Assembly (NCBI GenBank): GCA_040386695.1
Contig: JAZKFB010000017.1
Span: forward strand, 70,146-134,145
Origin: Verrucomicrobiota bacterium
Lineage (GTDB): Bacteria; Verrucomicrobiota; Verrucomicrobiia; Verrucomicrobiales; V1-33
DNA: 64,000 nucleotides
Direction: 5' to 3'
The notes beneath the pieces were generated by a model. That model was not told where the DNA came from. It did not search any database and worked only from the letters and a program-made list of their open reading frames with translations. Shown piece after piece: positions 25,193 to 32,827 of this stretch; position 1 is the stretch's first letter; each line of letters opens with the position of its first letter. Made by a program: the position numbers and the translations under genes.

Positions 25193-25799
25193 TCTTCGGG
25201 GTGTTGACGGTTTTCAGGAAATCCTCGGAGCGCTCCACCTCGGCCTGCCAGTTGTTGAGCAGGGTGAGGGTGTCCCGGCGGTAAAACTCCCACCCGGCGG
25301 CCCGCGCTTTGCCGAAAAGCTCCAGATCGGCGAGGAGCTGGGCCTCGGTGGCGCGCAGACGGCGGGCGGCGGCGGTTTCCTTCGGGCTCCAGGCGGTGGT
25401 GGCGCGGCGGTTGAAATGCTTTTGCAGGGCGGCGGCCACCGGTGGCGAAAGCGGGAAGCGGGAGGGTTTGGATTCCTTTCCGTCCGGAGGTTCCGAATCC
25501 GGAAATTCCGGAGCCTCGCACACGCGTGTATGTTCCCCGGGTGTGGGGGTGGGGATAGGGGGTGTGGGGGAAAGGGGCGGGGGAGAGGGTGGCGTTACTT
25601 TTTTGGTAACGCCGGTAACGCTTTCCCCGTCGGGCGTTACTTTTCCGGTAACGCCGGTAACGTTTTTCCGGCGGTCGCGGTAAGCCTGCTGCTTTTCCGC
25701 CGCCGTCATCGGGCGCTTGCCGGTGCCTATGGCCGCCGTGACCGCCTGAGCGATGATCTGCGCCAGTTCGGCGTGGGTGAGGGTGATGGTGTCGCTCAT
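25029..25799 (-). CDS. phage replication initiator
   Basis: MTAAEKQQAYRDRRK, internal iterons, Pro-rich linker; upstream of DnaC-like gene. Confidence 0.65.
   Translation of the reverse strand: MSDTITLTHAELAQIIAQAVTAAIGTGKRPMTAAEKQQAYRDRRKNVTGVTGKVTPDGESVTGVTKKVTPPSPPPLSPTPPIPTPTPGEHTRVCEAPEFPDSEPPDGKESKPSRFPLSPPVAAALQKHFNRRATTAWSPKETAAARRLRATEAQLLADLELFGKARAAGWEFYRRDTLTLLNNWQAEVERSEDFLKTVNTPKNGTDSRTNRPPVSRNAAPLDPNRPSLNATAVNGSAADLAKYGRPDPDENGKSYW
25591..25662. repeat. origin iterons: two 30-bp direct repeats
   Basis: GGCGTTACTTTT(TT/CC)GGTAACGCCGGTAACG at 25591 and 25633; six GTAACG/CGTTAC hexamers. Confidence 0.7.
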
Positions 25800-26803
25800 C
25801 AGAGTGCAAGTCCGGGGGTGATGCTGGTGCGGCGGCGGATAAGTTCCGCGTATTTCGGATTCAGCTCGATGAGCACCGCGCGGCGTCCCAGCTCGATCGC
25901 GACTTCGCCGGTCGTGCCGCTGCCGCCGAATGGATCAAGGACCACATCCCCCGGCCGCGAGCCCGCGAGAATGCACGGCTTGATAAGGTCCGGCGGGTAG
26001 GTGGCGAAATGCGCCTCCTTGTAGGGCGCGGACGGCACAGTCCACACGCTGCGCTTGTTGCGGGAATCGACCCGGAGACAGGTCCCGGCCGCGAAGCTGG
26101 GATTATTCTTCGATCCTCCCGACTCCGCGCCGGTCTTCCCTTTTTTGAAAACAGCCTTCATGCGGCCGTTTGTTTTCGCTCCACCATTCGCCCGCTCGCT
26201 TCCGAGCTGGGCCTCCAGATTTTGAGAAATCCGGGAATGGGTGTTCGGTGAGCACGGTTCCGCGATCGAGCTTTGATCGAAATAATAATTCGGGGATTTC
26301 GTCAGCAGGAAAATATACTCGTGGGCCTTCGCGCACCGGTCGGTGACGCTTTCCGGCATCGGATTCGGTTTTGACCAGATGATGTCCTGCCGCAGCCACC
26401 AGCCGTCCGCCTGCAGGGCGAGGGCGACCCGCCACGGCATTCCCATGAGCTGCTTTGCCGCGAGGCCTCCGGGAATCAGGCTTCCCTTTGTCCGCGCCGT
26501 GAATGTGCGTGATGCCCGCTGGCCGGTTTGCCCCTGGAATCCGCCGGCCGCTCCCGCGTAGGAATCACCCAGATTCATCCAGCATGTGCCATCCGGCCGG
26601 AGAACGCGCCGGACTTCCCGGAAAACGTCCACCATGATTTCAACAAAGGCCTCCGGGGATTCCTCCTGCCCGATCTGTCCGGAGACACCGTAATCCCGGA
26701 GCCCGAAATAAGGCGGACTGGTGACGCAGCATTGCACGGAGGATTCCGGCATGGACCGCATGACTTCGCGGCAGTCGCCGACGTGGAGAGTGAAGGCGCT
26801 CAT
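25799..26803 (-). CDS. N4-cytosine/N6-adenine DNA methyltransferase (beta class)
   Basis: TSPPY first, then HFATYP and DPFGGSGTT; start re-called at ATG overlapping the upstream TGA. Confidence 0.92.
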   Translation of the reverse strand: MSAFTLHVGDCREVMRSMPESSVQCCVTSPPYFGLRDYGVSGQIGQEESPEAFVEIMVDVFREVRRVLRPDGTCWMNLGDSYAGAAGGFQGQTGQRASRTFTARTKGSLIPGGLAAKQLMGMPWRVALALQADGWWLRQDIIWSKPNPMPESVTDRCAKAHEYIFLLTKSPNYYFDQSSIAEPCSPNTHSRISQNLEAQLGSERANGGAKTNGRMKAVFKKGKTGAESGGSKNNPSFAAGTCLRVDSRNKRSVWTVPSAPYKEAHFATYPPDLIKPCILAGSRPGDVVLDPFGGSGTTGEVAIELGRRAVLIELNPKYAELIRRRTSITPGLAL

Positions 26804-28122
26804 ATCAGGACGCGGGTGAGAAGTTGGGTGAAGGCACATTCAGCCTGCCATGGGACGACGCCGTTTCCGGCAATCCGGAGCATATCGGCACGGGCACGCA
26901 CCAGGTCGGGGGCCAGCCCATCAGCCAGGCCGTGAACAGAGGATTCAGTTTCCACCGCATCTCCGGGCGCCAGTCGATCCCCAGCAAACCGCAGAGCATC
27001 ATCTGGTAATGCGGGAGCGAGCCAGGGGCAGGCCTCAAGGATTCCAAGCCAGGCGGGATCAGAGGGACCGGGGGCGAAAACTGGCAGGCCTGCCCCGCCA
27101 GCACCATGCCGTGCGTCTCGCCATGTGACGGCGCAATTTTCGTAGTGCGGTTGCTGTTCTCGCTGGAGGTTGGCGTTGCCCAGTTCGCGGCCTGCGCAGG
27201 AAGCGGAATCCCTCCCGCTCCGAATTGCTGGTTGGGTCCACCCTTCTCCCCGTCGCTCCCCCGTGGAGTGCTCCAGTTCGCCGCCGCTCCGGGCAGCAGC
27301 AACTCCGAGTCCCGGCTCCCGCTCCGCCGGCTCTGTCCCCCGTTTGGAACAAGGACCGTCGGCCAAAAACTGATCGCGGCCACCGTCAGCGGAAGCCCGT
27401 TGTTCGCTCCCGTCTCCTTCTTCGTGCGCGGCGCGCGGGCCGCGAAACTCTCCGGGCTCTCCCTGTCGTTCGCGATCGCCGCGCTCGTTGTCGGCCAGAA
27501 TGAGACCGCCCGCCGCTCCAGGCACTGATCGGTCAGCCGGGCCCGCAATTTTCCGTCTCCACGATTCAATCCCGCATTGGGCCCGCCCGGACAGGTGTTG
27601 GCGGTGGGCCACGCAGAACCAGCGGTCGCGGCGGTGGCCGGCTCCAGTGTCGGACGCGCGGAGAGTTCCCCATTCGCAATTCCACCCCCTTTGAAGCAGG
27701 AGATCGGCGATGTAATCGAATTCCTTTTTGAGCCCGGCGACGTTTTCGAGGAATAAAGCCCAAGCTCCAACTGCGTCCGCGATGCCGAGAATCGCGGGCA
27801 GGAGGTTCCGGTCGTCCTCCCGGCCCTCCCTTTTGCCCGCGACGCTGTGGGGCTGGCACGGGAAGCCCGCAGCGATGCCGTCCACCAGTCCGTGAAATCC
27901 GCTGACCGGGAAGTTCTCCAGACAGCCGCTCCAAATAGGGGCTGGCTCCAGGCCCTTGTCCTCCATACGCGATCTGAGGACGGCGCACGGCGCGGCTTCC
28001 CGCTCACTGTAAGCCACAACCCGGGACCGGACTCCATGCCGGGCAAGGGCCCGCTCGATTCCGATGTCGAGCATTCCGGCTCCGCTGCAAAGCGAGAGGA
28101 TATTAAAGATGGCAGTATCCAC
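26800..28122 (-). CDS. C5 cytosine DNA methyltransferase, catalytic chain (motifs I-VIII, X)
   Basis: LSLCSGAG, AGFPCQPHS, FLENV, HRRDRWF, GNGVVP. Confidence 0.9.
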   Translation of the reverse strand: MDTAIFNILSLCSGAGMLDIGIERALARHGVRSRVVAYSEREAAPCAVLRSRMEDKGLEPAPIWSGCLENFPVSGFHGLVDGIAAGFPCQPHSVAGKREGREDDRNLLPAILGIADAVGAWALFLENVAGLKKEFDYIADLLLQRGWNCEWGTLRASDTGAGHRRDRWFCVAHRQHLSGRAQCGIESWRRKIAGPADRSVPGAAGGLILADNERGDRERQGEPGEFRGPRAAHEEGDGSEQRASADGGRDQFLADGPCSKRGTEPAEREPGLGVAAARSGGELEHSTGERRGEGWTQPAIRSGRDSASCAGRELGNANLQREQQPHYENCAVTWRDARHGAGGAGLPVFAPGPSDPAWLGILEACPWLAPALPDDALRFAGDRLAPGDAVETESSVHGLADGLAPDLVRARADMLRIAGNGVVPWQAECAFTQLLTRVLI

Positions 28123-28124
28123 AT
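26805..28124 (-). CDS. overlapping +1-frame partner of the C5 methyltransferase (TRD-like modules and motif IX)
   Basis: 439 codons open, ATG 2 nt from partner's GTG; five W-[PSA]-T modules; LNPLFTAWLMGWP. Confidence 0.75.
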   Translation of the reverse strand: MWILPSLISSRFAAEPECSTSESSGPLPGMESGPGLWLTVSGKPRRAPSSDRVWRTRAWSQPLFGAAVWRTSRSADFTDWWTASLRASRASPTASRAKGRAGRTTGTSCPRFSASRTQLELGLYSSKTSPGSKRNSITSPISCFKGGGIANGELSARPTLEPATAATAGSAWPTANTCPGGPNAGLNRGDGKLRARLTDQCLERRAVSFWPTTSAAIANDRESPESFAARAPRTKKETGANNGLPLTVAAISFWPTVLVPNGGQSRRSGSRDSELLLPGAAANWSTPRGSDGEKGGPNQQFGAGGIPLPAQAANWATPTSSENSNRTTKIAPSHGETHGMVLAGQACQFSPPVPLIPPGLESLRPAPGSLPHYQMMLCGLLGIDWRPEMRWKLNPLFTAWLMGWPPTWCVPVPICSGLPETASSHGRLNVPSPNFSPAS

Positions 28125-28538
28125 TCAGTCCCTTTCAGTGATGGTTATCCGGCAGCCCGCGAAGTCCGCGTAGGCCTTGCTTGCGCTCAGGCTGATCACG
28201 GCCGCGTCGTTAGGGAACGCCTTCTCGTCACCGAGCGCGTCCATCACCGCCTTCGCGAGATTGTCCACGTCGGGACGGCCGACGGGGTGAGCCGGCGCGC
28301 CTTTGACAAGCGCGCCGCGTTTGGTGAGGTGACCGGCGGGACGGGCGAGGAAGAACTCCAGCCGCATCCGGATGTGCCGGGCGAAGGGCGGATTGCCGGA
28401 CTCGCGCCAGGCGGTGCGGACGGCGGCTTTCCACGCGTCGGCGGACGGTGGATTGTAGGTGTGGCCGCGTTTTGTCATGCGCGGGCGGGGCTGCGGCGCG
28501 GGCGTGCCGGTGACATGGAAATGGGCGGTCTTGTTCAT
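28125..28538 (-). CDS. RusA-family Holliday junction resolvase
   Basis: PQPRPR, RPDVDNLAKAVMDAL, NDAAV; start at MNKTAHF. Confidence 0.88.
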   Translation of the reverse strand: MNKTAHFHVTGTPAPQPRPRMTKRGHTYNPPSADAWKAAVRTAWRESGNPPFARHIRMRLEFFLARPAGHLTKRGALVKGAPAHPVGRPDVDNLAKAVMDALGDEKAFPNDAAVISLSASKAYADFAGCRITITERD

Positions 28539-29257
28539 GCCTCGCCTCCTTCCAGTTTGCGGAATTCGACGACCCAGACCCGCGGATTCAAAGGCCAGGA
28601 GCCGGGGCCGTTGATTGATTCCCAAAGGTCGGCGTATTCATCCTTCGCGGAGATTGGATCAGGGCCGAAGCCGCTGTCCGGATCTCTGTAGGAAGGAGCC
28701 CATCCGGAAGTCGGAATGCACCCTTCGGCAATGGCGTCTTCCTCGCTAATCTCCTTCAGTCGTTCCAGGCGCGCACTGGCTATCTCCAGCGCGATCCGGG
28801 AGGCCCAGCGGGGCAGGAATATTGAAGGCCGCCACGCTTTCCAGTATGCGGTCAGATAATCGGCGTAATCATAGCCATCCTCCCCCTTCTTCCTTTGCCG
28901 CTGCCTGGGAAGCCCTTTTGGATCCGACGATCCGTGAGGGAGCGGGAAATCCATTAATGCTCCGTCGGCCTTATATTGGATCACATGGACATCATCGCCA
29001 TGCTTTCCGGGACCGAGGGAATTATAGGATCTGCTGCTCATGCGATAGCCCCAGGTCTCGCGCACCCAGAGCCGATCTCCCGGCTGCCCGTAAGGACAAG
29101 CCAGCGCCGCGTTCGGATCATCCGGGTGCCAACGGCGGTGAGCCAGCCGCACGTGGCCATCATCGGCCAGCTTGGCGATCCGCCGCGTCTGAGTCTTTCG
29201 CCCGCCCAGAATGGCCCGGATCATTGGCGCGCTGAATAAGATAGGTTTTTCTTTCAT
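28535..29257 (-). CDS. ASCH-like phage protein
   Basis: PILFSAPMIRAILGGRKTQTRR, GDRLWVRETW, WRPSIFLPRWASRI, NPRVWVVEF. Confidence 0.8.
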   Translation of the reverse strand: MKEKPILFSAPMIRAILGGRKTQTRRIAKLADDGHVRLAHRRWHPDDPNAALACPYGQPGDRLWVRETWGYRMSSRSYNSLGPGKHGDDVHVIQYKADGALMDFPLPHGSSDPKGLPRQRQRKKGEDGYDYADYLTAYWKAWRPSIFLPRWASRIALEIASARLERLKEISEEDAIAEGCIPTSGWAPSYRDPDSGFGPDPISAKDEYADLWESINGPGSWPLNPRVWVVEFRKLEGGEA

Positions 29258-29261
29258 AAAA

Positions 29262-30938
29262 TCAGAACCGGGACTTTCCGCCCCGGCCATTGTTGAGGGT
29301 GGAAATGGCCAGCATCTTCCGGCGGGTGCGGTGGACCATCCGCTCGGAGAGAGTCCCGGCGACGCACGGGATGAACTGGAGGCTTTTGGATTTGCCGCCC
29401 ACGCGGTCCACGCGGCCGGTGGCCTGCTCCATCTGCACGACGTGGTCCGTCGGGAAAATGTAGGCGGTGCGCGGCCGCCAGCCGTTGATGTCGTGGAGGC
29501 TCACGGAGGCCCCGCCCGCGCCGATGTTGGAGATCAGAATGTGCTGGCGGTCGGCCTGGAACTCCGCCTCCCAGTGCTGGCGCCGTTTGAGATTCTGCCC
29601 GCCGTAGAATCCGGCATTCGTGTTCAGAAGGCGGCTCAGCTGCTGCCGCGTGTCCGTGAAATTGACAAACAGGGCGACGCTCCGGCCGTCCCGCACGTCC
29701 GCTTTGACCAGATCGGCCACCGCCGGGACCAGCGCGGCCTCCGACGCCTGCCAAATGCGCATCATCGCCTGCCGTTCAATCATCTTCGTGTTTCCGTTCC
29801 CCTGGGCTGTCAGCCGCTCCAGCATGTCCTGCGTCTCCCTCCACTGCCGCTCGATCTCCGATGCGGCGGCACATTGGATGGGAAGCACGCTGATTTCCGT
29901 TTCCGGACACTCCGCGCCCAGATCCTCCTTCCGGACCCGGCAGCCCCGTCCGGGGAAGAGCCGGGCATGGATGGCGGCGAGGTGGCGGGTTTCTCCGTCC
30001 CATTTCCAGCCCTCCGCGCCGGTCCGCCGCCGGCAGCCGTGCGCCAGCAGAAACCGCGTCCAGTCATCCGCTCCCCGGTGCAGGCCCACAATGCGGCCGG
30101 CGAATCTCATCTCCAAAGGGCTAATGGCCACGGTGGCGGAGGCCACGATGATCGGGACTTTCTGCATCACGGCCGCACTGCACAGCCGCACGTTCAGGGT
30201 CTCGTCGTGCCGCAGGGCCTGCGCCTCATCGAGAATGAGAATGATTTCCCCGTGCTGTTTCCAGCGGAAGGTCCCGTCCAGCATCTGCTCGACAATGTGC
30301 GGCCGGTTCCCCGCCCGCAGGCCCTCATAGGTGCCGATGAAATGCGCGTCCGCGCCAAAGTGGGCGAAAGCCCGCTCCCAGCCCGCCCGGCCCACGACCG
30401 GGCACAGGACGATGACCGCCTTCCCGGTGGCCAGGGCGGCCGCGAGAGCCATGTAGGTTTTCCCGGTGCCCATGTCCGAAAGGTCCACGGCTCCGGGGTA
30501 TCCCCATTCCTGCGGTCCGCGGGTGATGGCCCGGTAAAGCTGGCGGGCGGGAGTGACCTGGTAATCCCGCAGCTTCCGCTCCAGTGCCTCCGGGAGCGGA
30601 TCCAGAACAAGGGGGGCCTCCTCCAGCGGCAGGGACATCTGGCGGGCCGCGTCCATCCGGGCGACCTTTTCCGCGCTGATCGGCGTCAGGCCGCCGCCCA
30701 TCAGCAGCCACTGGGTGAGGCGGCTCTTGCCGTTGAAAATGGAGAGCTGCCAGCCCGCGCGGATCATGGCGGCGGAGTTCTCCTTCCACCACCGGGAGAA
30801 CATATCGTCCCGGTGGAGCGGAATGGCGGACTCCCGGAACATGCGGTATCCTCCCGCCGTGCTCCGCTGGATAAGAACAGGGACGGGCTCAAGAAATTCC
30901 GGCCACAAAGGGCGGGGGCTGGCAGCTGTCGCGCTCAT
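29262..30938 (-). CDS. superfamily II (SNF2-like) helicase
   Basis: DMGTGKT, ILDEAQ, SAT, QATGRVDR. Confidence 0.85.
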   Translation of the reverse strand: MSATAASPRPLWPEFLEPVPVLIQRSTAGGYRMFRESAIPLHRDDMFSRWWKENSAAMIRAGWQLSIFNGKSRLTQWLLMGGGLTPISAEKVARMDAARQMSLPLEEAPLVLDPLPEALERKLRDYQVTPARQLYRAITRGPQEWGYPGAVDLSDMGTGKTYMALAAALATGKAVIVLCPVVGRAGWERAFAHFGADAHFIGTYEGLRAGNRPHIVEQMLDGTFRWKQHGEIILILDEAQALRHDETLNVRLCSAAVMQKVPIIVASATVAISPLEMRFAGRIVGLHRGADDWTRFLLAHGCRRRTGAEGWKWDGETRHLAAIHARLFPGRGCRVRKEDLGAECPETEISVLPIQCAAASEIERQWRETQDMLERLTAQGNGNTKMIERQAMMRIWQASEAALVPAVADLVKADVRDGRSVALFVNFTDTRQQLSRLLNTNAGFYGGQNLKRRQHWEAEFQADRQHILISNIGAGGASVSLHDINGWRPRTAYIFPTDHVVQMEQATGRVDRVGGKSKSLQFIPCVAGTLSERMVHRTRRKMLAISTLNNGRGGKSRF

Positions 30939-30944
30939 GGATGG

Positions 30945-31688
30945 TCAGGCGGCCTCGTTGGTGGTTTCGGCGTCGGCATCAGCCCAGCCTTTACTCCACG
31001 CCTCGGAGGTGGGCATTCCATCCGGATAGGGATTCTCGTGGACCAGCAGTCCGCCATGGGCGCGGGCCACAAATCCCTTGTCGTAAGCGGCGCCGACAGC
31101 GGATTCGGAGATTTCGGGCTCCTCCTCCGCGGGCGCGGCCGCCTCCTCCAGCGGAAGCCCCATCTGCCGCTCGTCCGCCGTGATCGGCTTCGTCTCCACA
31201 ACCCCGCCGGTGTCCAGCCGGATCAGGGTTTTGTAGTTCCCGTCCCGGATGAACGCGCCGGTGTCATCGCGGCCGGCGATCTCCCACATCCAGCGGCAGG
31301 GCACGGGCTTGGCCTCCGTTCCCCGGCGGATCAGATCGGACTGACGGTTCTGAATCTTCTCCTGATCCGTGATGAGTCCCTTATAATGGTCGGCGCTCGC
31401 TTTTTTGGCCGCCTCCAGCTCGCGGATTTCCGTCACGGTGTCAGCCAGCAGATTGGCCGCCTGGCTGATTTCCTCTTTTGTCAGCGGCACTCCGATCTCG
31501 CGGGTTTCCGTCTTCTCGTTCCAGTTGATCTGGAGACTGAGGATTTCCTCGGAGTCCCAGGCCTCGAATGCGGCGACAAGTGCGGCTTCCTCGGGTGGAC
31601 TATTTTCGGCGGTGGCCCCGGCGGATTCGTTCAGCGGCTGCGCGGTGTCGGGTTTCTGTTCATCGGTCTGTTTTGGTCTTCTGGCCAT
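30945..31688 (-). CDS. hypothetical protein with C-terminal Rmf/CrpP-like motif
   Basis: AYDKGFVA...NPY...AWSKGWADA. Confidence 0.6.
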   Translation of the reverse strand: MARRPKQTDEQKPDTAQPLNESAGATAENSPPEEAALVAAFEAWDSEEILSLQINWNEKTETREIGVPLTKEEISQAANLLADTVTEIRELEAAKKASADHYKGLITDQEKIQNRQSDLIRRGTEAKPVPCRWMWEIAGRDDTGAFIRDGNYKTLIRLDTGGVVETKPITADERQMGLPLEEAAAPAEEEPEISESAVGAAYDKGFVARAHGGLLVHENPYPDGMPTSEAWSKGWADADAETTNEAA

Positions 31689-31729
31689 GATGTTGGTTTG
31701 TTTGGTTTGGGTTTGGGTGTGGGGTGAAA

Positions 31730-32827
31730 TCAGAGGTCGGCGGCGGACTTGGCGATCTGTTCGCCGAGCACGCGGAGCCGGGCGGAAAGCCAGTCGGAGA
31801 TGTGACCGGCGGCGGGCGAGAGCTGCGGCAGCGGCAGGGCGGCCAGGGCGGCCGCGAAGGCGGTGAGCTTTTCCCGGTCGGGCGCGGCGGCTGCTTTACG
31901 GGCGGCTTCAGCTTCGGCGTCGATGCGCTGGCGCTCGGCCTCGGCGCGATCCGATTCACGTTTGTCAGCCTCCTGTTTTTGCCTCCTTGCCTCCGCCAGC
32001 TTTCTATTGGCCTCCGCCTGCTGCCTCCGCAGCTTTTCATCCGCCTCTTTCCGGGCGGCATCCGCCCGCTGCTGGATTTCGAGATTCCGCGCAGTGAGTG
32101 CCGCCGCCTCATCGCGCAGCCGATCATTCTCCAGCCGGTCCCGCTCCCGCTGGTCGGCTTCTTCTTTTTCCTTCGCCAGCCGGTCCGCCTTTTCTTTGGC
32201 TTCCCTGGCCAGCTTCAGCTCGCGCAGGTCTCGCGCATCAGACAGCACGGCCTGATACTCGTCCTCGGTGATTTTGCCCAGATCGACGGCCGGGAAGGAG
32301 GTGAGATAAGGCCGGATTTCATTGGAGCGGGCGGTCCGGCGCTCATCCTCCAGCCGGGCGGTTTCGATTTCGATAAAATCCTCCTGCTCCTGCAGCCGCT
32401 TTTCCAGCCGGGTGGCACCGTCCCAGATTTCCTTGAATCCGGCATTGATGCGGCGGACCTCCTTCGTCATCCCGTCCACCATGCCCTCGCGCTTTTTATC
32501 GGAGGCGATGCGGATCTGGCGGATCTGGAGCCGGGTTTCCCGGGCGAGTTTCTGGCCCGCGAGGTCGGTGATGTCCGTCACATTCAGCGTTTCCGCCGTC
32601 CTGCGGAGAGATTCAATTTTGCTCTGGAACTCTGTCAGGATAACGGCCGTGTCCGCTCTCGGCAGCAGGGACTCATTGACGGCTTCGGCGGCGGATTCGA
32701 TCTCCGTTTCCGGCTCAGCGGGAATCAGCTGGAGCTCGACCGGCGGGGCCACTCTGGCGGCGGGCTTGACGGCGGCGGGGGCGGGTTTTGTGGTGCGCCA
32801 GGGCGCGGGTGCGGTGGTGGTGGTCAT
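31730..32827 (-). CDS. long coiled-coil phage protein
   Basis: E/R/K/A-rich heptads; in the recombination operon. Confidence 0.7.
   Translation of the reverse strand: MTTTTAPAPWRTTKPAPAAVKPAARVAPPVELQLIPAEPETEIESAAEAVNESLLPRADTAVILTEFQSKIESLRRTAETLNVTDITDLAGQKLARETRLQIRQIRIASDKKREGMVDGMTKEVRRINAGFKEIWDGATRLEKRLQEQEDFIEIETARLEDERRTARSNEIRPYLTSFPAVDLGKITEDEYQAVLSDARDLRELKLAREAKEKADRLAKEKEEADQRERDRLENDRLRDEAAALTARNLEIQQRADAARKEADEKLRRQQAEANRKLAEARRQKQEADKRESDRAEAERQRIDAEAEAARKAAAAPDREKLTAFAAALAALPLPQLSPAAGHISDWLSARLRVLGEQIAKSAADL

Follow-up and report, generated by a model that had tools for sequence, protein, structure and literature searches.

How can a DNA methyltransferase gene yield an enzyme when its conserved motifs are divided between two reading frames? 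The question is raised by a gene on the minus strand of a 64,000-nucleotide (nt) stretch of a Verrucomicrobiota bacterium (GenBank assembly GCA_040386695.1, contig JAZKFB010000017.1, positions 70,146 to 134,145), referred to here as the window and numbered from its first letter. To judge from its sequence, this is a prophage DNA cytosine methyltransferase gene whose catalytic and DNA-recognition domains lie in different frames, the latter in an overlapping +1 frame. We consider it probable that the gene specifies a C5 DNA methyltransferase of two chains, each from one of two co-extensive overlapping frames with adjacent start codons. A preliminary description, made from the letters of the window and a list of its open reading frames (ORFs), had noted two ORFs that start 2 nt apart in ATGTG, right after the stop codon of rusA, and end 5 nt apart; the ORF list and the minus-strand sequence agree with this. 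ORF B is in the +1 frame relative to ORF A, and the stop codons of the two are separated by 5 nt.

26800 to 28122, minus strand: ORF A (alpha), 440 amino acids (aa), GTG start, stop at 26800 to 26802; the large catalytic domain of a C5 DNA methyltransferase, with a long linker inserted.
26805 to 28124, minus strand: ORF B (beta), 439 aa, ATG start, stop at 26805 to 26807; the recognition (small) domain in its C-terminal half.

Frame A is readily recognized. Residues 6-177 match positions 1-165 of the 324 positions of PF00145 (E 1.4e-24), residues 81-177 align with residues 73-175 of M.HhaI, and direct reading of the translation gives LCSGAG (motif I), GFPCQ (IV), ENV (VI), RRDR (VIII) and GNGV (X), where motif names I to X follow the standard nomenclature for C5 methyltransferases. 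These are the motifs that the preliminary description had listed. It had also called the variable region of frame A low in complexity and devoid of motif IX. Indeed, residues 178-345 consist largely of Gly (18%), Ala (14%), Arg (13%) and Glu (11%), and no alignment column is invariant between residues 167 and 351. The motif IX-like sequence LNPLFTAWLMGWP, which it had placed in frame B just upstream of motif X of frame A, occupies frame B residues 393-405, just 5' in the DNA of the frame A GNGV (residues 419-422). The PHROG profile phrog_1008 ("DNA methyltransferase") spans both frames in the same order, with frame B residues 392-409 matching its positions 262-279 and frame A residues 404-437 matching its positions 287-320. 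A Pfam search of the ORF B translation found no match. Frame A has motifs I, IV, VI and VIII and the closing motif X of a C5 methyltransferase (PF00145); the recognition region and motif IX, which in that family belong to the same polypeptide as the catalytic motifs, are both in the +1 frame. Taken alone, frame A is without recognition region and motif IX, and frame B is without any catalytic motif. The gene resembles those of the monomeric PF00145 enzymes M.HhaI and M.HaeIII in motifs I, IV, VI, VIII and X, in the fold of frame A and in the order of the motifs on the DNA, but unlike them it has no single frame holding all the motifs. The C5 methyltransferase fold comprises a large and a small domain, a description with which the domain layout of M.HhaI agrees. 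The relevant section of PMC3404938 assigns motifs I-VIII and X to the large domain and the variable region and motif IX to the small one, so frame A would encode the large domain and frame B the small domain.

Is such a pair of ORFs more than an accident of base composition? The genome to which the window belongs is 6.8 Mb long with about 65% guanine plus cytosine (GC), and 43 same-strand pairs overlapping by at least 1200 nt occur among its 3696 open frames of at least 400 codons. For the window gene itself, the stops expected in frame B across the catalytic domain number 2.6 under codon permutation and 1.4 under synonymous shuffle (probability of none, 0.02 and 0.17, respectively), and those expected in frame A across the middle domain number 4.6 and 4.5 (0.00 and 0.01). 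The GC-by-codon-position profile of this gene alone does not cleanly separate the frames. The single ORF pair in the window is only weakly beyond chance, and because one such pair in a 65% GC genome is not surprising, the case rests on comparison. The same figures can be read to mean that one frame alone, A or else B, is functional and the other ORF a compositional by-product of GC-rich DNA, or that the gene is decaying; the 43 long overlapping pairs fit that reading, and the profile of GC at third codon positions in the window gene, taken alone, does not decide the matter.

We therefore turned to relatives of the gene, 77 places in all: 74 viral contigs out of a larger number that match, two genome loci and the window. 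Searching genome contigs with frame B as a single protein had given only the two loci, and an alignment-based scan of viral contigs gave the rest. Each locus was cut into stop-to-stop pieces in three frames, which were searched with frame A residues 1-185 and with a profile of the B-type C-terminal half (A1, built from 12 homologue sequences). The catalytic domain lies in one frame and a B-type recognition domain in the next (+1) frame in 70 of the 77 places. Everything is in one frame in four (L049, L059, L070, L076), and three have no detectable catalytic domain (L024, L069, L073). In most places the frame A tail carries a clear motif X (R.DRLR.LGNGVVP...), and motif IX (LNP.F.EWLMGWP.GW) is found in the frame B tail just upstream. 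The four single-frame relatives are homologous by blastp to frame A in their N-terminal part, to frame B in the middle and motif IX, and to frame A again in motif X. The two-frame layout also occurs in five further genome loci (L081-L084, L086), from 5 of 401 genomes of the same class with the window genome included, and in Burkholderia phage phi1026b and Acidovorax phage Alfacinha3. A sequencing error or a pseudogene was ruled out as the origin of the split, because the layout is conserved in 70 places and stops are avoided. The comparative data place the two-frame arrangement far beyond chance.

The point of return to the catalytic frame differs between clades. In four viral contigs of GC 0.68-0.74 (L052, L060, L068, L074), WPTP-type recognition repeats are in the +1 frame, but motif IX joins motif X in the catalytic frame.

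The C-terminal half of frame B is, by its distribution, a real and widespread domain. Residues 165-439 have 509 homologues at E <= 0.001 among 5799 candidates (best E 6.3e-40); among the 120 of these that were listed, PF00145 is present in 3, PF17762 in 4 and no Pfam family in 113. Run against a library of 1.84 billion sequences, the A1 profile matched 21145 cluster representatives at E <= 0.001, 7161 at 1e-10 and 657 at 1e-30. The best 150 of these comprise 76 of at least 330 aa and 74 that are shorter. Among the 76 long ones, 57 have an N-terminal half of the frame-B type, 17 have neither this nor a catalytic domain, and two (P0040 and P0205) have a catalytic domain; the motif X pattern was found in the last 80 residues of none of the 150. 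It would seem that in public protein sets the B-type domain is almost never in frame with its catalytic domain. The profile matched no Protein Data Bank sequence at E <= 10, so no solved relative of the recognition region can be named by sequence.

The preliminary description had held that an interruption of frame B in close homologues would refute its proposal, and had suggested looking in homologues for avoidance of stop codons in both frames. Across the catalytic domain, frame B is free of stops in 65 of 70 places, compared with 10.7 expected under codon permutation and 15.1 under synonymous shuffle; the corresponding figure for the third frame is 4 of 70. Across the middle (recognition) domain, frame A is free of stops in 64 of 70 places, with 2.6 and 3.8 expected, respectively, and the third frame is stop-free in 1 of 70. 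The proposal thus survived. Thirteen places have a GC content of 0.62 or less (below 0.62 in 12; for L004 the listed 0.62 is a rounded value). At one locus with 49% GC (L044), there is no stop in frame B across the catalytic domain and none in frame A across the middle domain, where 5.2 and 10.1 would be expected and the third frame has 11 and 16. Exceptions at L006, L038 and L022 are boundary effects, each a single stop at the end or start of the ORF itself. Three other places, L063, L064 and L066, have the recognition region, motif IX and motif X together in the +1 frame, in the manner of M.AquI; frame B has 7 stops in L063 and 6 in L064 across the catalytic-domain region and frame A has 4 stops across the middle domain, and L066 has only the 4 frame-A stops. 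These tallies indicate that both frames are kept open by selection. A reading with a single functional frame would have to accommodate stop avoidance far above that of both the shuffles and the third frame, at 49-60% GC as well, together with parts homologous to a single-frame enzyme in each frame, the recognition region and motif IX missing from frame A and every catalytic motif missing from frame B; we regard it as highly improbable.

Which frame is constrained at which point? Two independent clusters of 12 and 11 loci were aligned as DNA and analyzed for nucleotide entropy by codon phase and for rates of difference at 4-fold sites and in residues. Both clusters gave the same frame map. Across the catalytic domain, frame-A third positions are the most variable and residues differ at a rate of 0.25-0.26 in A versus 0.43 in B. 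Across the recognition region it is the frame-B third positions that are most variable, with residue differences of 0.53-0.55 in B versus 0.70 in A. Further downstream, the block FPPGP.D..W....P.LAPA is frame-A-coded (4-fold-site difference 0.50-0.52 in A versus 0.24-0.28 in B), motif IX is frame-B-coded (residue difference 0.06-0.18 in B versus 0.26-0.32 in A, with the other two codon positions nearly frozen), and the motif X region is frame-A-coded in both clusters. As far as these alignments indicate, constraint alternates B-A-B-A-B-A over the first five to six codons, motifs I-VIII, the recognition region, the block, motif IX and motif X. The preliminary description had proposed an A-B-A alternation, to be checked by region-specific substitution rates; the difference rates show the coding frame switching by region in both clusters, and the alternation is real and finer than proposed. 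The segments, in the direction of reading, are as follows.

28107 to 28124, minus strand: B codons 1-6 (M-W-I-L-P-S); family consensus M-W-[LIC]-[YF]-[VIL]-P, kept in frame B and not in frame A.
27592 to 28107, minus strand: catalytic core, frame-A-coded, motifs I-VIII (A residues 6-177); the overlapping part of frame B is a shadow without stops.
27088 to 27591, minus strand: frame-A linker (A residues 178-345), rich in Gly, Ala, Arg and Glu; a stop-free shadow of the B recognition region, predicted to be disordered.
26961 to 27611, minus strand: recognition region, frame-B-coded (B residues 172-388), in which WPTP-type modules recur and a "DGEKGGPNQ" block is found.
27007 to 27081, minus strand: frame-A-coded block FAPGPSDPAW...P.LAPALP (A residues 348-372), upstream of B motif IX in the DNA.
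26898 to 26960, minus strand: motif IX, frame-B-coded (B residues 389-409, ..LNPLFTAWLMGWPPTW..); the frame A "ADGLA" here is a shadow.
26815 to 26901, minus strand: motif X helix, frame-A-coded (A residues 408-436, ..RIAGNGVVPWQAECAF..); GNGV is invariant, and the predicted local distance difference test (pLDDT) score is 92.

Alignments of 37 sequences for each frame place the invariant columns accordingly. In frame A they run up to R167 and resume from P351, and they include C89, E126, N127, R165 and R167 on the N-terminal side and P351, W358, P370, G419, N420, G421 and V422 on the C-terminal side. In frame B they are W2, P5, G65, G359 and, within 393-405, L393, F397 and W400-P405. By codon arithmetic, G359 of B is the shadow of W358 of A; direct reading shows that "ADGLA" of A is the shadow of "EWLMGWP" of B and that the B tail past motif IX is the shadow of motif X.

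This map bears on a reading in which the gene gives one chain, a monomer, by programmed frameshifting, with translation starting in frame A, shifting +1 after motif VIII and shifting -1 after motif IX. The motif order on the DNA (I-VIII, recognition region, IX, X), which is the same as in single-frame relatives, is what such a chain would have, and at L048 and L056 the motif X piece is kept though frame A is closed upstream, as fits a return shift. However, the A-to-B junction past motif VIII is the least conserved part of the gene, gappy and with an entropy of about 1.2-1.6 bits in all three phases in both clusters, and no conserved slippery site or stimulator is visible there in the alignments, on which no formal RNA-structure search was run. 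In a frameshift gene the alternative frame need be open only past the shift site; here both frames are open well beyond it, and frameshifting requires neither a frame A open past the junction (64 of 70) nor a frame B open from the 5' end (65 of 70). Moreover, with the frame-A-coded block and its invariant P351, W358 and P370 placed between the frame-B recognition region and motif IX, four or five frame changes would be needed in one chain; it would have to skip the block or shift at least four times. B also has a conserved start and N-terminal residues of its own. Double frameshifting is much less likely because the junction is the least conserved part, both frames are open far beyond what a shift calls for and the selected frame changes five or six times; we consider it unlikely. 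The preliminary description had left a choice between a heterodimeric and a doubly frameshifted C5 methyltransferase. Sequence comparison favors the former, and the five or six alternations and the want of conserved junction nucleotides tell against the latter.

If there are two chains, where does each begin? The starts of both lie in one short region.

28120 to 28135, minus strand: shared initiation region; purine-rich AAAGGGA at 28135-28129, rusA stop TGA at 28127-28125, B ATG at 28124-28122, A GTG at 28122-28120.

The minus-strand sequence at this point is AAAGGGACTGA ATGTGG, that is, AAAGGGA-CTGA-ATGTGG. The ATG lies 4 nt and the GTG 6 nt downstream of AAGGGA, a Shine-Dalgarno-like sequence, and the window gene therefore has an ambiguous AUGUG site, in which AUG and GUG lie 2 nt apart behind one such sequence. 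Passages of Kohl et al. 2022 (PMC9841429) report that suitably spaced AUGUG and GUGUG sites initiate both frames in Escherichia coli reporters, and also discuss termination-reinitiation at start-stop overlaps. The window gene is like those sites in having two starts 2 nt apart behind one Shine-Dalgarno sequence; unlike the second frames described in those passages, which are mostly short or parts of reporter constructs, both of its frames are about 440 codons long and each is part of one enzyme. Among relatives, an A-frame start codon lies between -13 and +5 nt from the B start in 42 of 42 places, at offsets of -4 in 16, +2 in 10, -7 in 6, +5 in 6, -10 in 2 and -13 in 2. The arrangement is NTGAATG in 16 of the 42 and ATGTG or GTGTG (+2) in 10. 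The stop of an upstream ORF of at least 50 codons falls -16 to +1 nt from the B start in 35 of 42, and a Shine-Dalgarno-like word is near the start in 31 of 42 by a loose definition and in 21 by its core.

The first codons of B are themselves conserved. Across 40 loci the N-terminus reads M(x)-W-[LIC]-[YF]-[VIL]-P with an invariant Trp codon; the three positions of the Pro codon have entropies of 0.34, 0.17 and 1.78, and residue entropy at this point is 0.34 in frame B versus 3.36 for the overlapping frame-A codon. Selection on the first residues of B thus acts in frame B, an argument for translation of B from its 5' end. The next approximately 160 B residues look unconstrained.

Two further explanations turn on this end of the gene. 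One start might serve both products, all ribosomes beginning at the B ATG and a fraction slipping -1 past M-W-L-Y-V-P, so that alpha and beta would share their N-terminus. The first five or six codons, kept in frame B with the frame-A-coded region right after them (a pattern clear in cluster 1), are as this would predict. However, a -1 slip of the Pro tRNA requires a C before the Pro codon, and that base is in fact highly variable (entropy 1.80); no X_XXY_YYZ heptamer occurs in the conserved stretch; and an early shift does not need the A-frame start that accompanies the B start in 42 of 42 places. We judge an early shift to be quite unlikely; the variable base ahead of the Pro codon led us to set aside slippage of its tRNA after W-L-Y-V-P.

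Alternatively, there could be two chains with beta started internally just upstream of the recognition region and the 5' half of frame B untranslated. Short B-type proteins are often predicted (the 74 under 330 aa among the best 150 representatives), L063, L064 and L066 have an internally started B frame, and the beta chain of M.EcoHK31I uses internal starts, according to the part of PMC2836561 that deals with it. A 5' half without function does not call for frame B to be stop-free across the catalytic domain in 65 places of 70 where 11-15 are expected, nor for conservation of the 5' start and W-L-Y-V-P of B, and the 37-sequence alignment has no conserved Met column near the start of the recognition region. 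An internal start for beta strikes us as improbable.

Do the two products fit together? AlphaFold2, given the frame-A alignment, predicted frame A with pLDDT above 88 for residues 1-180, about 53-75 for about 341-370 and 92 for 420-440; for residues 197-344 pLDDT is below 50 and no secondary structure is predicted. A Foldseek search with this model found M.HaeIII (1dct_A, E 6.9e-12) and also M.HhaI. The preliminary description had suggested predicting A and B together, and full-length frame A was run with frame B residues 165-430 on 37-row alignments of each. The complex scored 0.88, compared with 0.00 for the best of three controls. Of 80 solved complexes 58 attain this mark, and of 110 mismatched pairs 2 do, a calibration that is only rough here because our own alignments served as input. 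The runs share at least 37% of contacts, with a partner pLDDT of at least 43. The tightest predicted contacts join A368-372 and A414-423 with B391-403, and A368-372 touches B391-397. The prediction supports binding between A and B and does not show it; C5 methyltransferases with both domains in one chain have been solved, and the pass may reflect likeness to these known enzymes.

In frame B, residues 35-90 (about 27855-28022, minus strand), which overlap motifs I-IV of A, were predicted at pLDDT 58-78 with two short strands and three helices. This moderate confidence may be spurious, a product of shadow conservation in the alignment.

We propose that the gene works as follows. There would be one landing site, at which ribosomes that have finished rusA or bound the purine-rich stretch start at either the ATG (beta) or the GTG (alpha), initiation probably being coupled to termination of the upstream gene; dual initiation of this kind would lead to translation of both frames. 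Alpha would carry motifs I-VIII in its N-terminal part and the conserved block and motif X helix in its C-terminal part, with a predicted disordered linker of approximately 150-170 residues between them, which would exist only because the underlying DNA encodes something else. Beta would begin with approximately 165 residues that are mostly a shadow of the catalytic domain and continue with the variable recognition region and motif IX. Contact between motif IX of beta, on one side, and the C-terminal block and motif X of alpha, on the other, would hold the two chains together, and the assembled complex would have the layout of a monomeric M.HhaI-like enzyme and be active, methylating phage or host DNA.

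Several points weigh against this proposal. The arrangement looks wasteful: beta would carry about 165 residues of shadow and alpha a linker of about 150-170 residues. The fold of frame B is poorly predicted, with a mean pLDDT of 50.7 and a predicted template modeling score of 0.27 for frame B alone, and pLDDT of 44-46 in the complex. The first codons of B, clear across the 40 loci and in cluster 1, have no clear frame-B pattern in cluster 2. The loci are mutually related, so tallies such as 65 and 64 of 70 overstate the number of independent observations; DNA identity between the locus clusters is only about 50%. P0040 and P0205 join a catalytic domain of the frame-A type to a B-type C-terminal half in one chain. 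Finally, L048 and L056 have 8 and 15 frame-A stops in the middle region, so a continuous alpha is not obligatory; they still keep the conserved frame-A C-terminal piece (WPPGP...GNGVVP), following an in-frame Met, and this clade would appear to need a third start, giving a three-piece form, or some recoding.

Concerning these exceptions, P0040 and P0205 are public predicted proteins in which the switch falls inside motif VIII and motif X is absent; they may be natural fusions or assembly indels. The loci at L048:1329-2975 and L056:1515-3041 (GC 0.57-0.59) could represent a three-piece variant of the enzyme.

How does such a gene compare with known split methyltransferases? The preliminary description had cited M.EcoHK31I, which needs two chains, one of them from an alternative frame within the other chain's gene (Lee, Kam and Shaw 1995), and the relevant sections of PMC2836561 and PMC3404938 bear out the precedent as it was stated. 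At the sequence level, the window gene likewise has a second chain encoded in another frame within the gene of the first, with motif IX on this alternative-frame chain and motifs I-VIII and X on the first. The comparison made here is one of descriptions. As described in those sections, the recognition domain of M.EcoHK31I is on alpha, and beta is a small internal ORF with motif IX only; the second frame in the window holds the whole small domain (recognition region plus motif IX), the ORFs are co-extensive (440 and 439 codons) and alpha has a long predicted disordered linker. What is new relative to that precedent would be a whole recognition domain on a second, co-extensive frame. M.AquI, as presented in PMC3404938, offers another comparison, being naturally split within the variable region into two C5 methyltransferase chains that assemble; no overlap between whole genes is mentioned there. 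Its second chain carries motifs IX and X according to the same section, whereas the window gene keeps motif X on the first chain; L063, L064 and L066, which have the recognition region, IX and X together in the +1 frame relative to the catalytic domain, are closer to M.AquI than the window gene is. No description of the arrangement was found in the literature searched, which did not extend to REBASE notes or paper supplements, and the parts of the Atkins et al. 2016 recoding review (PMC5009743) that were searched by term contain no DNA methyltransferase case.

Beyond the window, we lean slightly toward the view that a large family of phage and prophage methyltransferases consists obligately of two co-extensive genes, a catalytic frame and a +1 recognition frame, both translated from adjacent starts and forming a heterodimer. 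If this is true, a same-strand overlap of about 1.0-1.6 kb would be conserved family-wide, each frame being alternately function and filler. Two features would then be adaptations to a two-chain enzyme: the W-L-Y-V-P of beta and the frame-A block touching motif IX. Were both frames translated, nature would here offer many long same-strand overlapping genes whose two products belong to one enzyme, and a clean system for studying the choice of ribosomes between adjacent starts, evolution under alternating constraint and methyltransferase assembly in trans. A recognition domain on a separate chain may also ease swaps of specificity by exchange of beta.

The preliminary description had expected single-ORF annotation to miss genes of this kind, and public records do show one ORF only. 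Of the two ORFs, gene callers and curators enter just one, sometimes the "wrong" one or one under another name. The phi1026b record has only frame A, as "DNA methyltransferase" (NP_945098.1), and the Alfacinha3 record only frame B, as gp46, "cytosine-specific methyltransferase". For the window genome, the protein collection contains a 424-aa frame-A product; none of the 120 listed homologues of frame B is an entry of 100% identity from this genome, in a comparison that involved no exact-sequence lookup, and frame B was apparently not called. If the enzyme has two chains, methylome studies that clone only the annotated ORF would find no activity.

In phi1026b (L078:1772-3892; NC_005284.1, 45808-47928), frame B passes the end of the methyltransferase gene without meeting a stop and continues in frame into a ParB-like gene, giving a 706-aa ORF that several related phage records name "chromosome partitioning protein". 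Long extensions of frame B are likewise found in L005 and L018.

The genes on either side of the pair in the window are these.

28125 to 28625, minus strand: rusA, upstream gene (PF05866, E 3.8e-22); its stop abuts the ATG of ORF B.
25799 to 26839, minus strand: N6/N4 DNA methylase gene, downstream (PF01555, E 5e-51).

The start of the N6/N4 DNA methylase gene overlaps the 3' end of A by 40 nt and that of B by 35 nt. Upstream of rusA, and overlapping it by approximately 90 nt, is a 251-aa ORF (28535-29290, minus strand) with no Pfam match at E <= 0.001. Outside the window, the same genome has a second two-frame methyltransferase gene of a different subfamily (L086:915-2100; contig C24, about 30915-32100), with frame A at 915-2042, beginning "MNYYNEFD..." like the Lysobacter locus L001, and frame B at 982-2100.

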